Shown here in pieces: positions 3,001 to 9,000 of a DNA stretch of 43,448 bases. Each line of letters begins with the position of its first letter. Positions within the stretch are counted from its first letter, which is position 1. Source of the stretch: a virus (lineage: Duplodnaviria; Heunggongvirae; Uroviricota; Caudoviricetes); the IMG/VR virus record IMGVR_UViG_2861058914_000003. One strand, 5' to 3'. The position numbers were made by a program.

Positions 3001-6000
3001 CGTGAGGATGGGTCATCGCCATTGCTCTCCAAATACAAAACCAATTTCAGCCAGTGCTTCGTCCATTTTTTCGATGAACTCCGGCACCATCTCGTCAAAA
3101 CTCGCCATGTACTTTTCATCCCGCTCAACCACGACATAATGCAGGCCTTCACGCTTCATTCGTGGGTCATAGTTGGCAAAGTACCAGGCATCTTTTCGTG
3201 TCACCCACATGCTGTACTGCACCTGGGCCATGTAAGCCGACTTTATGGCCTCGAAACCACCGAGCCGGAACTTCATGAAATCCCGGGAGGTAAACGGGCA
3301 TTTCAGCTCAAGGCCATTGCCGTCACTGCATAAACCATCGGGAGAGCAGGCGGTGCGCATACTTTCGTCGCGATAGATGATCGGGGATTCAGTAACATTC
3401 ACGCCGGAAGTGAATTCAAACAGGGTTCTGGCGTCGTTCTCGTACTGTTTTCCCCACGCCAGCGCCTTAGCATTAACTTCCGGAGCCACACCGGTGCAAA
3501 CCTCAGCCAGCAGGGTGTGGAAGTAGGACATTTTCATGTCAGGCCACTTCTTTCCTGAGCGGGGCTTTGCTATCACGTTGTGAACTTCTGAAGCGGTGAT
3601 GACGCCGAGCCGTAATTTGTGCCATGCATCATCCCCCTGTTCGACAGCTCTCACGTCGATCCCGGTACGCTGCAGGATAATGTCCGGTGTCATGCTGCCA
3701 CCTTCTGCTCAGTGGCTTTCTGTTTCAGGAATCCAAGAGCTTTCACTGCTTCGGCCTGTGTCAGTTCTGACGATGCGCGAATGTCGCGGCGAAATATCTG
3801 GGAACAGAGCGGCAATAAGTCGTCATCCCATGTTTTGTCCAGGGCAATCAGCAGAGTGTTAATCTCCTGCATGGTTTCATCGTTAACCGGAGTGATGTCG
3901 CGTTCCGGCTGACGTTCCGCAGTGTATGCAGTATTTTCGACAATGCGCTCGGCTTCATCCTTGTCATAGATACCAGCAAATCCGAAGGCCAGACGGGCAC
4001 ACTGAATCATGGCTTTATGCCGTAACATCCGTTTGGGATGCGACTGCCACGGCCCCGTGATTTCTCTGCCTTCGCGAGTTTTGAATGGTTCGCGGCGGCA
4101 TTCATCCATCCATTCGGTAACGCAGATCGGATGATTGCGGTCTTTGCGGTAAATCCGGCACGTACATGATTCATTGTCCTGCTCAAAGTCCATGCCATCA
4201 AACTGCTGGTTTTCATTGATGATGCGGGACCAGCCATCAACGCCCACCACCGGAACGATGCCGTTCTGCTTATCAGGGAAGGCGTAAATTTCTTTCGTCC
4301 ACGGATTAAGGCCGTACTGGTTGGCGACGATCAGCAATGCGATGAACTGCGCATCGCTGGCATCACCTTTAAATGCCGTCTGACGAAGAGTGGTGATCAG
4401 TTCCTGTGGGTCGACAGAATCCATGCCGACACGTTCAGCCAGCTTCCCAGCCAGCGTTGCGAGTGCTGTACTCATCCGTTTTATACCTCTGAATCAATAT
4501 CAACATGGTGGTGAGCAATGGTTTCAACCATGTACCGGATGTGTTCTGCCATGCGCTCCTGAAACTCAACATCGTCATCAAACGCACGGGTAATGGCTTT
4601 TTTGCTGGCCCCGCAGCGTTGCAAATGATCGATGCAGAGTGATTCAAACAGGTGCTGTGGAAGACCTTTTTCCATGTCGTCTGCCAGTTCTGCCTCTTTC
4701 TCTTCACGGGCGATCTGCTGGTAGTGACGCGCCCAGCTTTGAGCCTCAAGACGATCCTGAATGTAATAAGCGTTCATGGCTGAACTCCTGAAAATGGCTG
4801 TGAAAATATCGCCTGCGAAATGCCGGGCTGATTAGGTAAACAGGAAAGGGGATTAGTGATTCAGGCCGTTGCCGCGTCCGTCGAGAAAAACTTCCACGAG
4901 CAAATCACGGGTATAAGTGCGCTCGATGCCGCGATGCAGATAAAGCCGTCCGCGTAAATTAGCTGATGCAGTCCAGGTACCATCTTTGTGTTTGACCAGC
5001 ATTCCTGGCATGACCGCACCGCGATTAACGGTCTGCGTTCCGTAATGTTGATGAACCATAAAAACTCCTGCCCGTAAGCTGGGCTGCTGAACATATAGAG
5101 ACTTCTGCGCGTATTCAGGCGGTGGATGGCCGCCGGTTGTCATAACTAAGCCGCCTCGTTGAAGCGACTAAGGTATGAAATGTTGAGTTAATTTCAGCTG
5201 GTCACACCGACGTTCACGCGTCCGTTTCACCCCTCGCACTCCCCGAAGCCTGCTGAAATTCAAACTGCGGATCTAAGCGGTCATCGCAACGGTGAATCAG
5301 GTAGTTGCCGTATCGTTGTGTTGTTGCGATGAACTTATTTAAAACTATAGTTGTTTTATCGTCAACAACAAAAGTTGTTTTATTGGTTGTTTTAGATATA
5401 ACTGGTTGTATTTAGGATGGATTTATTTTGTGACTTGAATCGCATAGCGATAACTGAAGCGAGGTTATGGTGGTTTTTTTAACGGTGTGTGTGATGAGGG
5501 GAGGGCAAAAGAAAACCCGGCACGGTGACCGGGATTCTTACGCCGTTAGGTAAAGATATTATTGCGGTGGCTTAATATTACTACCTAGAGCAAAGATAGG
5601 AATTAGTTCTTTACTGAATGAGCACAATGCCCAGTTGATAATTTTTAATTGGTACTACCCATGCTTCCTATATGTCTGCGGCATGCTCCCAATAACCTTA
5701 CCGAAGATGAACACCCGGTTCATCTCGTCTTTCTCGATCGGGTCCCACGGTGAGTAGCTTTTGTTATCAGAGATGACCAGCAGCTTATCCTTCATCATTT
5801 GCAGGCGCTTTACATGGGCTGTGTCGTCGTACAGAAACGCATAGATACCATCACCGTCGAAAGATTTAACTGTGATATCAACGAACAGCAGATCACCTGG
5901 TTCGATCGTTCCTGACATGCTGTCACCACGCACGTTAATGATGCGGATATTTTCCGCCTTCCTACCATCGAACATGTGACGAGCATCGTCAAACGAGTAC

Positions 6001-9000
6001 TCAACCGAGCGTAGAACTTCTACAAACTCACGGTTGATGACTCCCGGCCCAGCACTGACTTCTATATCAAGAACGTCAATCTTGAAGTATTTGGAATGGC
6101 TGACAGTTGATTGTATTGGTTGCACTGTACTGTCTGACATATTTCCAACGCCAGAAGATAACCATTCTGCGCGCACACCCAAAGCGTTCGCGATCTCCAC
6201 GATTTTAGTTGTTTGATTAGCTTTCCCTGTTTCGATTTTCTGAATAGCAGCCTGGCTAACCCCGACCAAATCCCCAAGCGCCTTTTGTGTAAGGCCTCGC
6301 GCTAATCTGGCTTCTTTAAGTCTTTCTGAGAGTGTTGTTTTCATAGTCCAAATGTACAACCAAGGTTTTATTCCATCAAACGAAAATGGTTGTTGACTAA
6401 AAACAACCATAGTTTTAATCTTGATTCAAATTAACCACGGAGGTTGTTATGAACCCAGCTATCAAAACAGCGATCAATATCGTTGGTTCACAAAAGAAAC
6501 TGGGCGCTGCTTGCGAAGTTTCACAGCAGGCCGTCTATAAGTGGCTTCACAACAAAGCAAAGGTATCCCCTGAACATGTCGGCAGCATTGTTACGGCTAC
6601 TGGTGGAGTAGTGAAGGCATACCAGATTCGCCCGGATCTTCCGAAGTTGTTTCCACACACCGAAAAGAACGCAGCTTAAATTTCCATTTCACGCTCTTTA
6701 ACAATAAGCAATCAACTTAACAGTCAATTCAAACTAAAGGAGTCAATTATGCAACCACTTACATACCAACAGACTAGCGGATTTAGCCCGACTGCGGTGA
6801 TAAATCGTTCTCAAACAAAACAGGTGCCAGGCCACGAAAAAATCCGTGATGCCGTCCGCGCCTGGTCGGCTGTAGATAATCAGGATGTCGTTGCCACACT
6901 CATTGTGAATGAGTATCTGGAGCAGGGCGGCGGCACCATCGATTTCCCTGATGATGTCAGCCGTGCACGCCAGAAGCTGTTCCGCTTCCTCGATAACAAA
7001 TTCGATTCTGAAAAATACCGAAATAACGTGCGTGAACTGACCCCGGCAATTCTGGCGGTACTACCGCTGGAATATCGCGGTTACCTGGTTGAGCAGGATA
7101 GCTTCATGGCTAGGTTGGCTGAAATGGAAAAGGAACTCAGTGAGGCAAAACAGGCTGTCATTCTCAACGCACCACGCCACCAGAAACTGAAGGAAATTAG
7201 TGAAGGTATTGTGTCGATGTTTCGTGTGGACCCAGATCTGGCTGGTCCATTGATGGCGATGGTTACTACCATGCTGGGGGCGATATGACAGGTTCAGAAA
7301 TGGCGAAAGCCGGTCTGCTGGAACAGAACCGACTTTCAGGTGCAAATCGTAACACACTCATTGCGGGAGGAATTATGGCAAACACTGCTGAGATATTCAA
7401 TTTTCCAGTGCCGGATGCGGCACAAAAGGAGCCGCGCGTGGCAGATCTCGATGATGGTTATACGCGCATTGCAAATGAGTTGCTGGAAGCTGTGATGCTG
7501 GCCGGATTAACACAGCACCAGCTTCTGGTCTTTCTGGCTGTCATGCGCAAAACATATGGCTTTAATAAAAAACTGGATTGGGTTAGCAACGAGCAACTTT
7601 CCGAATTAACCGGGATATTGCCGCACAAGTGTTCTGCTGCAAAAAGTGTTCTGGTAAAGCGTGGGATTTTTATTCAGAGCGGGCGGAATACCGGCATTAA
7701 TAATGTGGTCAGTGAATGGTCAACATTACCCGAATCAGGTAAGAAAAATAAAGTTTACCTGAAAGAGGTAAATTTACCTGAATCAGGTAAAAAAAGTTTA
7801 CCCAAATCAGGTAAAGGCGTTTACCCGAATCAGGTAAACACAAAAGACAAACTAACAAAAGACAATATAAAACCTTTTTCGTCCGAGAATTCTGGCGAAT
7901 CCTCTGACCAACCAGAAAACGATCTTCCTGTGGTGAAACCGGATGCTGCAATTCAGAGCGGCAGCAAGTGGGGGACAGCAGAAGACCTGACCGCCGCAGA
8001 GTGGATGTTTGACATGGTGAAGACCATCGCGCCATCAGCCAGAAAACCGAATTTTGCAGGGTGGGCTAACGATATCCGCCTGATGCGTGAACGTGACGGA
8101 CGTAACCACCGCGACATGTGCGTGCTGTTCCGCTGGGCATGCCAGGACAACTTCTGGTCCGGTAACGTGCTAAGTCCGGCCAAACTCCGCGACAAGTGGA
8201 CCCAACTCGAAATCAACCGTAACAAGCAACAGGCAGGCGTGACAGCTAGCAAACCAAAACTCGACCTGACAAACACAGACTGGATTTACGGGGTGGATCT
8301 ATGAAAAACATCGCCGCACAGATGATTAACTTTGACCGTGAGCAGATGCGTCGGATCGCCAACAACATGCCGGAACAGTACGACGAAAAGCCGCAGGTAC
8401 AGCAGGTAGCGCAGATAATCAACGGTGTATTCAGCCAGTTACTGGCAACTTTCCCGGCGAGCCTGGCTAATCGTGACCAGAACGAACTGAACGAAATCCG
8501 CCGCCAGTGGGTTCTGGCTTTCCGGGAAAACGGGATCACCACGATGGAGCAGGTGAGCGACGGAATGCGTGTTGCCCGTCGGCAGAATAGACCATTTCTG
8601 CCATCACCCGGGCAGTTTGTTGCATGGTGCCGGGAAGAAGCATCCGTTACCGCCGGGCTGCCAAACGTCAGCGAGCTGGTTGATATGGTTTACGAGTATT
8701 GCCGGAAGCGTGGTCTGTATCCGGATGCAGAGTCTTATCCGTGGAAATCAAACGCGCACTACTGGCTGGTTACCAACCTGTATCAGAACATGCGGGCCAA
8801 TGCGTTGACTGACGCGGAATTACGGCGCAAGGCTGCCGATGAACTGGCCTGTATGACCGCGCGAATTAACCGTGGTGAGGCTATACCTGAACCAGTAAAA
8901 CAACTTCCTGTCATGGGCGGTAGGCCTCTAAATCGTGCACAGGCTCTGGCGAAGATCGCAGAAATCAAAGCTAAGTTCGGGCTGAAAGGAGCGATGAAAT

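Follow-up and report, generated by a model that had tools for sequence, protein, structure and literature searches.

The 43,448-nucleotide (nt) sequence analyzed here (hereafter the window) is IMG/VR virus record IMGVR_UViG_2861058914_000003, a member of the Caudoviricetes. At positions 5655-7288 it carries a gene for a LexA-like cI repressor and, in the opposite direction, genes for proteins of the YdaS and YdaT families. This module is an ordinary and already annotated lambdoid lysis/lysogeny switch of the phi80/HK639 architectural type, and it is not novel. Given the family membership of its proteins, the catalytic residues of the repressor, the enrichment of a single operator motif, the geometry of the operators, the boundaries of the immunity cassette, and its identity to a plaque-forming phage, we consider it very probable that the immunity region is complete and functional, most likely working like the switch of lambda or 434.

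The initial annotation had described the module as a hybrid, as if the combination were unusual. However, phages phi80 and HK639 have the same trio of an S24-type cI, a YdaS-like cro, and a YdaT-type cII, and the cII gene of phi80 was annotated in 1988. Nor is the module rare. At least part of it is present in 2225 of 5426 complete Escherichia coli genomes, and its immunity-specific core (6100-6745) is found in 1523 of them (28%), nearly always at 95% identity or more. Phage PhiR34_1, whose record gives E. coli MG1655 as host and names the genes cI, Cro, and cII, is 100% identical to the 2-kb module, and five further isolated coliphages carry it at 96-100% identity. As for literature on the PhiR phages, one preprint was found, which mentions them only as a set of temperate phages related to lambda.

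Many lambdoid prophages of E. coli are defective, and N, cIII, and oop are absent here, as might be expected if the module were a decayed part of a cryptic prophage that had lost its switch function. However, every open reading frame is intact and the catalytic residues are in place. Isolated phages carry the module at the identities given above, and the same early layout lacking N exists in the isolated phages PhiR34_1, PhiR47_2, and 4A7. For these reasons, decay is a most improbable explanation.

The Repressor Gene

The 229-amino-acid (aa) cI protein gives matches above the Pfam cut-offs to HTH_3 (5.4e-13, residues 9-62) and Peptidase_S24 (1.2e-18, residues 95-218). Its N-terminal 65 residues align with the 434 repressor (PDB match, E = 4.5e-9), and its C-terminal domain aligns with UmuD (PDB match, 4e-5) and LexA. 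The scissile bond Ala98-Gly99 lies in VSAGPG, and the catalytic residues Ser142 (in GDSM) and Lys179 (in VKRL) align with GDSM and VKKL of UmuD. The self-cleaving S24 domain that had been assigned to this repressor is thus borne out by the profile match and by the presence of the cleavage-site and catalytic residues.

A longer reading of cI is possible, beginning with an ATG at 6410 and yielding 251 aa, but this start falls within the rightward promoter and operator. In the homologues of 4A7, HK639, the Klebsiella phage ST101-KPC2phi6.1, and the Providencia phage PSTCR7lys, the start is the equivalent of the ATG at 6344 (MKTTL..., 229 aa). The GenBank record of PhiR34_1 gives the 251-aa protein (L001 5302-6057, corresponding to window 5655-6410), with its start inside the -35 element and operator of the rightward promoter, while cI is annotated from the 6344-equivalent start (229-230 aa) in PhiR47_2, HK639, and 4A7. 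The 251-aa start in PhiR34_1 is probably an annotation error.

The interval separating cI from its terminator (window 5536-5655) is an empty slot in this phage. In relatives it holds a two-gene cassette (L002 1741-3169; L003 1060-2476), annotated as GevT/GevA in PhiR47_2; in 4A7, one of the two genes is annotated as coding for an ASCH-domain protein and the other for a hypothetical protein. The slot is occupied by rexAB in the Klebsiella relative.

YdaS and YdaT Proteins in the Places of Cro and CII

The rightward operon, which runs away from the repressor gene, opens with a gene for a 76-aa protein that matches the Pfam model YdaS_toxin (PF15943) at 4e-17, with 62.2 bits against a cut-off of 30, in agreement with the proposal that this cro is of the YdaS type. 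The protein also matches P22_Cro, below threshold, and a Cro protein of known structure (PDB 3bd1, 7e-4). The 179-aa product of the next gene was likewise predicted to be a YdaT-family, CII-like regulator, and the similarity is pronounced: it matches YdaT_toxin (PF06254) at 9e-30 (103.4 bits; cut-off, 21) and PHROG 163, “CII-like transcriptional activator,” at 6e-67. Its identity is 65.6% to phi80 cII and 51% to HK639 cII. The match to the CP-933P YdaT structure (PDB 8bt1), in which a long tetramerizing helix comes after a POU-like HTH domain, is distant (E = 7e-4), with an alignment over residues 28-106 only.

Lambda-type O and P replication genes follow the cro/ydaT pair. In a Klebsiella phage, a near-identical cro (87%) is combined with a lambda-type CII. 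The cro and cII genes reassort freely, as would those of lambdoid mosaics.

Names such as “Bacterial toxin YdaS” and “Bacterial toxin ydaT” in Pfam, the RefSeq label “toxin YdaT domain-containing protein,” and the toxicity of the Rac genes on ectopic expression (PMC5917428 and its references) might suggest that the two proteins form a toxin/antitoxin-like pair under repressor control rather than regulators of lysis and lysogeny. However, their genes occupy exactly the places of cro and cII, facing away from cI and preceding O and P, and phi80 cII is itself a family member with the identity given above. Moreover, YdaS and YdaT of CP-933P and Rac are DNA-binding regulators and not a toxin/antitoxin pair (PMC8630535, PMC9986795, PMC11879457), and the module is present in a plaque-forming phage. 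We therefore give the toxin reading almost no credence. The equation of YdaS with Cro and of YdaT with CII is already in the literature (PMC5917428, PMC8630535, PMC9986795, PMC11879457). Experiments have shown that YdaT of CP-933P and Rac activates a reverse promoter resembling the establishment promoter pRE (PMC8630535, PMC11879457), and the homology of CP-933P YdaT to phi80 CII has been noted (PMC8630535).

Operators of 14 Base Pairs

The 434 operator is a 14-base-pair (bp) site of the form ACAA-N6-TTGT. An exact search of the window for the motif ACAAC-N4-GTT(G/T)T gives five matches, distributed over four sites that all lie in the left operator (oL) and the right operator (oR), two sites in each (Table 1). 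Only 0.16 matches were expected, and none of 100 shuffled sequences reached five. As a variant of the 434 operator, the motif fits the homology of the cI DNA-binding domain to the 434 repressor. Based on these patterns, the true operators are most likely 434-like 14-bp sites, arranged as a tripartite oR and a multisite oL.

We aligned oR with the corresponding regions of Klebsiella ST101-KPC2phi6.1 and Providencia PSTCR7lys, whose repressors have an identical recognition helix (GVSQAAIQKIETG), and with that of HK639. Three 14-bp dyads are conserved, separated by spacers of variable length, with the N4 spacing invariant at every site. The Klebsiella and Providencia phages retain the ACGAA...GTTGT pattern of oR2, where HK639 shows ATAACAAAGGTTAT. 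In HK639, with its different recognition helix (ISQPAIQKMTSG), all three positions instead read ATAAC-N4-GTTAT, so that both half-sites are altered symmetrically. An additional operator-like sequence over the cro ribosome-binding site (6434-6447) has an equivalent that matches the consensus exactly in the Providencia phage (ACAACGGAGGTTTT) and with one mismatch in the Klebsiella phage. Repressor may thus have a fourth site, located 3′ of the pR start, although the conservation of this sequence could instead stem from constraint on the ribosome-binding site.

The initial annotation had proposed another operator: a single perfect 25-bp palindrome, ATGGTTGTTGACTAAAAACAACCAT (6386-6410; GTTGTT-N7-AACAAC), overlapping the -35 element of the rightward promoter pR. 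In such a model, one repressor dimer would bind there, and the GTTGTT repeats on the left would serve as auxiliary elements. An inverted repeat with 9-bp arms does exist and overlaps the -35 element of pR (TTGACT, 6393-6398), and a similar GTTGTT...AACAAC pair lies over the -35 element of the leftward promoter pL (5350-5369). The repeat is not perfect, as only 18 of its 25 positions are self-complementary and its 7-bp spacer is asymmetric. By our own rough, uncomputed estimate, a 9-bp inverted repeat with a short spacer would have about one to two chance occurrences in 43 kb. The arm spacing is also inconstant, being N7 at pR and N8 at pL, and in HK639 the corresponding half-sites (GTTAT and ATAAC) are 11 bp apart, whereas the 14-bp unit has its N4 spacing everywhere, which argues against the palindrome as the binding unit. 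In addition, a palindromic operator leaves the exact 14-bp sites at 6356-6369 and 5365-5378 unexplained, and it conflicts with the binding of helix-turn-helix (HTH) dimers of the 434 family to ACAA-N6-TTGT in the orientation of the 14-bp dyads, as is generally known and as the 434 homology of this repressor implies. A single palindromic operator is thus quite unlikely. Because oR fits three 14-bp dyads, the palindrome is better seen as a by-product of two adjacent ones.

An immunity specificity different from that of lambda had been predicted, and the 14-bp operators uphold this expectation. A search with the lambda operator consensus found no similar site in oL or oR. The one hit, with three mismatches, falls within ydaT (6786-6802) and is no more than expected by chance.

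The Left Operator and the Boundaries of the Immunity Cassette

Comparison with phage 4A7, which has a different immunity, delimits the cassette. The two phages share the C-terminal domain of cI (100% protein identity from residue 85), ydaT (96.6%), and the flanking DNA (87-97%). Only residues 1 to about 85 of cI, oR, cro, and an oL island of 90 bp are diverged. The oL island and the DNA-binding domain are thus exchanged together, as is classically seen for an imm region.

Within the island, oL2 has the same position relative to the -35 element as does oR2. The sequence TGGTTGT occurs eight times in the window, counting both strands, and five of these occurrences are in oL or oR. Two ACAACCA half-sites inside the island have poor right halves and might serve as one or more weak oL3 sites. 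The GTTGTT repeats that the initial annotation had placed at 5317-5410 exist, and those within 5328-5418 belong to the immunity-specific island. This does not apply to GTTGTGTTGTTG at 5316-5327, which lies in the flank shared with a phage of different immunity and is probably the start of the transcribed pL leader rather than an operator.

Promoters and Operator Geometry

Promoter hexamers for pR, for pL, and for the repressor maintenance promoter pRM were read from the sequence (Table 1), and in the alignment pR coincides with the putative pR annotated in HK639. Over 19 nt, pL/oL1 and pR/oR1 mirror each other at 95% (inverted repeat I2), and transcription is predicted to begin near 5330 from pL and near 6428 from pR. 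Hexamers equivalent to those of pRM are kept in the Klebsiella and Providencia relatives.

From the position of these hexamers, transcription from pRM would start at the A of the cI ATG at 6344, producing a leaderless cI mRNA. The cI mRNA of lambda is leaderless. The same is true for paaR2 of CP-933P, as determined by rapid amplification of cDNA 5′ ends (PMC8630535). Counted from the A of the cI ATG, the centers of oR3, oR2, and oR1 are at -18.5, -42.5, and -65.5, compared to -19, -42, and -66 in lambda. This geometry is consistent with a leaderless and self-activated cI gene.

Table 1. Predicted features of the immunity region, in window coordinates
Feature	Position	Strand	Description
Immunity-specific oL/pL island	5328-5418	-	About 90 bp; only diverged stretch in the left-hand alignment with 4A7; identity elsewhere, 87-96%
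pL	5337-5365	-	-35 TTGACG (5360-5365), 17-bp spacer, -10 TTAAAT (5337-5342); read from sequence
oL1	5341-5354	-	ACAACTATAGTTTT; exact match to ACAAC-N4-GTTKT (K, G or T); in pL spacer, overlaps start of -10
oL2	5365-5378	-	ACAACTTTTGTTGT; exact on both strands, perfect 5-bp dyad arms; abuts pL -35
Two ACAACCA half-sites	5377-5409	-	5384-5390 and 5403-5409; candidate weak oL3 site(s)
Intrinsic terminator 3′ of cI	5516-5533	-	CCCGGTCACCGTGCCGGG then TTTTCTTTT; from terminator scan; kept in 4A7
cI repressor gene	5655-6344	-	229 aa; 434-like HTH, linker, S24 self-cleavage domain; Pfam and PHROG matches
pRM	6351-6379	-	-35 TTGATG (6374-6379), 17-bp spacer, -10 TACATT (6351-6356); read from sequence
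oR3	6356-6369	+	ACAACCAAGGTTTT; exact motif match; overlaps pRM -10 and spacer; kept in relatives
oR2	6380-6393	+	ACGAAAATGGTTGT; two mismatches to consensus; last base is first base of pR -35
Palindrome of the initial annotation	6386-6410		ATGGTTGTTGACTAAAAACAACCAT; right half of oR2, -35 and spacer, left half of oR1
pR	6393-6421	+	-35 TTGACT, 17-bp spacer, -10 TAATCT; read from sequence; aligns with annotated putative HK639 pR
oR1	6403-6416	+	ACAACCATAGTTTT; exact motif match; within pR spacer, touches -10; kept in relatives
Possible fourth operator-like site	6434-6447	+	ACCACGGAGGTTGT; over cro ribosome-binding site; one mismatch to consensus
cro	6449-6679	+	76-aa Cro of the YdaS family, all-alpha and related to P22 Cro; PF15943, PHROG 35
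cII-type regulator gene	6749-7288	+	179 aa; YdaT family, phi80 cII subfamily

Proposed Mechanism of the Switch

We propose that a dimeric cI with a 434-like HTH binds the 14-bp dyads, three in oR and at least two in oL. Cooperative binding at oR1 and oR2, and occupancy of oL1 and oL2, would block pR and pL. Repressor at oR2 probably activates pRM to produce the leaderless cI mRNA. Because oR3 overlaps pRM, the promoter would be shut off at high cI concentrations (negative autoregulation) or when Cro is bound. When the SOS response activates RecA, cI is predicted to cleave itself at Ala98-Gly99 via the Ser142/Lys179 dyad, which would derepress pR and pL and induce the prophage. The YdaS-family Cro, as the first product of pR, presumably acts on the same operators. 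The YdaT-family protein, as the CII equivalent, presumably switches on a leftward establishment promoter for cI.

Several observations weigh against this mechanism or leave parts of it without a visible counterpart. A promoter scan reported none of pR, pRM, or pL, which were recognized by eye and through the HK639 alignment. The left half of oR2 carries two mismatches to the consensus, and no convincing 14-bp oL3 was found beyond the half-sites. The YdaT box TTGATT-N6-AATCAA has no exact copy in 5300-7300, and with up to three mismatches it occurs at chance frequency (22 found, 23 expected). An establishment promoter (pRE) and a YdaT site were sought in the immunity region and not located. Likewise, no N, nut, cIII, rexAB, or oop/M3-like element was found.

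With respect to the box, the closest similar sites in the immunity region are at 6421-6438 (two mismatches) and 6698-6715 (three mismatches). Box specificity may differ in this YdaT subfamily, and the absence of the box leaves family membership intact. A -10-like CATAAT over the ATG of ydaT was considered as part of a pRE, but this hexamer is not kept in HK639 or phi80, and we make no such claim for it. Just 5′ of the ydaT start is a direct repeat of AGTCAATT (6722-6729 and 6741-6748, 19 bp apart), the only repeat near this location. In addition, the sequence TTAACAATAAGCAATCAA (6698-6715) has a partial counterpart in the cro-ydaT spacer of 4A7, which is otherwise diverged. The repeat and the TTAACAATAAGCAATCAA region together are a candidate regulatory element upstream of ydaT.

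Because N, cIII, and an oop/M3-like element were not found, we conclude that early antitermination and the stabilization of CII differ from those of lambda or are absent. The ydaT gene overlaps O (ATGA at 7285), and thus no slot is left for an oop/M3 RNA. On the left side, pL is followed by a 190-nt leader (5143-5335, minus strand) and then by kil (4853-5143). The leader opens with a perfect 10-bp stem (5281-5290/5323-5332) and is about 96% conserved in 4A7. A put-like antiterminator RNA was considered for the leader (5143-5330) and rejected, as the region has neither similarity to the putL-like and M3-like RNAs of HK639 nor a match in Rfam. The predicted fold of the leader is no more stable than that of shuffled sequence (z = -0.33).

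Comparison with Known Immunity Systems

The immunity region of phi80 (cI, gene 30, and cII; GenBank X13065, from 1988, and NC_021190) is ordered alike, with an S24-type cI, then gene 30 as a short HTH-type cro, then a cII of the YdaT family, and beyond them O-like and P-like genes. With the YdaS model, gene 30 reaches 29.8 bits, slightly below the 30-bit cut-off. There are three CI operators each in oL and oR of phi80, and pRM, pR, and pL are similarly arranged. In contrast, the phi80 operators are annotated as 19-bp sites of other sequence. Moreover, phi80 has N with nutL, as well as an oop-like M3 RNA after cII, whereas the window lacks these and has kil directly after pL.

HK639 (NC_016158) also has a 229-aa S24 cI, and its cro (YdaS family) and cII (YdaT family) are 62% and 51% identical to those of the window. 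Its oR aligns position for position with that of the window, including three 14-bp dyads and the same positions for the pR hexamers, and it likewise has no N gene. However, its half-sites are ATAAC/GTTAT rather than the ACAAC/GTTGT of the window, and this difference implies a different immunity. HK639 also has an annotated putL-like antiterminator RNA and an M3-like RNA, for which no counterpart was detected in the window.

The window shares with lambda and 434 a tripartite oR with nearly the same centers relative to a cI start, predicted to be leaderless here, and a self-cleaving S24 repressor. The N-terminal domain of its cI is homologous to that of the 434 repressor, with 14-bp operators of the ACAA-N6-TTGT type. 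Unlike lambda, its Cro is of the all-alpha YdaS/P22-Cro type and does not have the lambda Cro fold, its CII is of the YdaT type, and rexAB, N, cIII, and oop are lacking.

The roles presumed here for YdaS as Cro and YdaT as CII are those demonstrated experimentally in CP-933P (paaR2-ydaS-ydaT) and Rac (racR-ydaS-ydaT) (PMC8630535, PMC9986795, PMC11879457). However, PaaR2 of CP-933P has no peptidase motif, and there is no response to mitomycin C (PMC8630535), whereas the S24 domain of the window cI is intact. The window YdaT is only a distant relative of CP-933P YdaT, as noted above, and the YdaT box of CP-933P and Rac is not intact in the window immunity region.

A Match to the YdaT Box Upstream of ninB

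The published YdaT box is matched exactly only once in the window, by TTGATTATGAATAATCAA (14863-14880), upstream of ybcN/ninB and Q, where it forms the -35 element and spacer of a strongly conserved promoter-like sequence, TTGATT-N17-CATAAT. Two hairpins, TCACCGGAG...CTCCGGTGA and GCGCTAAACG-GGGA-CGTTTATGCGC, lie 3′ of the box, within 14863-14950. In both, the loop is conserved and the stem covaries with phi80, and no Rfam family corresponds to them.

Among 120 IMG/VR loci picked by the hairpin sequence, 95 have a strict TTGAT-N8-ATCAA dyad core, with variation in the spacer and flanks. Of the IMG/VR loci with the box, 32 extend 6 kb or more upstream, and 24 of these include a YdaT-family gene, an association confounded by relatedness. 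Both contigs with a CII of the lambda type are without the strict box, and one of them has a version with one mismatch. The box in the nin region does not covary with the subtype of the YdaT recognition helix. One possibility is that the YdaT-type CII of this phage group recognizes the TTGATT-N6-AATCAA dyad of CP-933P and Rac, in which case its main target would lie outside the immunity region. We regard this as rather unlikely. If true, binding at 14863-14880 would link the choice of lysogeny directly to production of the late-gene antiterminator Q, as an analogue of lambda paQ with another mechanism. In that case, the hairpin pair with covarying stems would represent either an RNA or a protein-binding element not described before in these phages without N.

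Neighboring Genes

Between the replication genes and the nin region, the window carries as cargo a gene (9252-13517) for a 1421-aa inverse autotransporter, an adhesin of the intimin/invasin type (IAT_beta, Big_1, Invasin_D3) with three nearly identical internal repeats. Adjoining it, on the minus strand and therefore opposite to the early operon, is a gene (13554-14597) for a 347-aa alpha/beta-hydrolase (BD-FAE/Abhydrolase_3 esterase) with an N-terminus resembling a signal peptide. PhiR34_1 has ybcK, ybcL, and ybcM at this location.

Implications

The module has little discovery value. Its immunity type ranks among the most frequent of the lambdoid kind in E. coli, and annotations of it already exist for isolated phages. 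The practical value of the module lies in corrections: the 251-aa cI start in PhiR34_1 is probably wrong, and the “toxin” names for YdaS and YdaT in Pfam and RefSeq are misleading here. For users of this phage panel, reading oR as a series of 14-bp dyads would provide precise operator coordinates.

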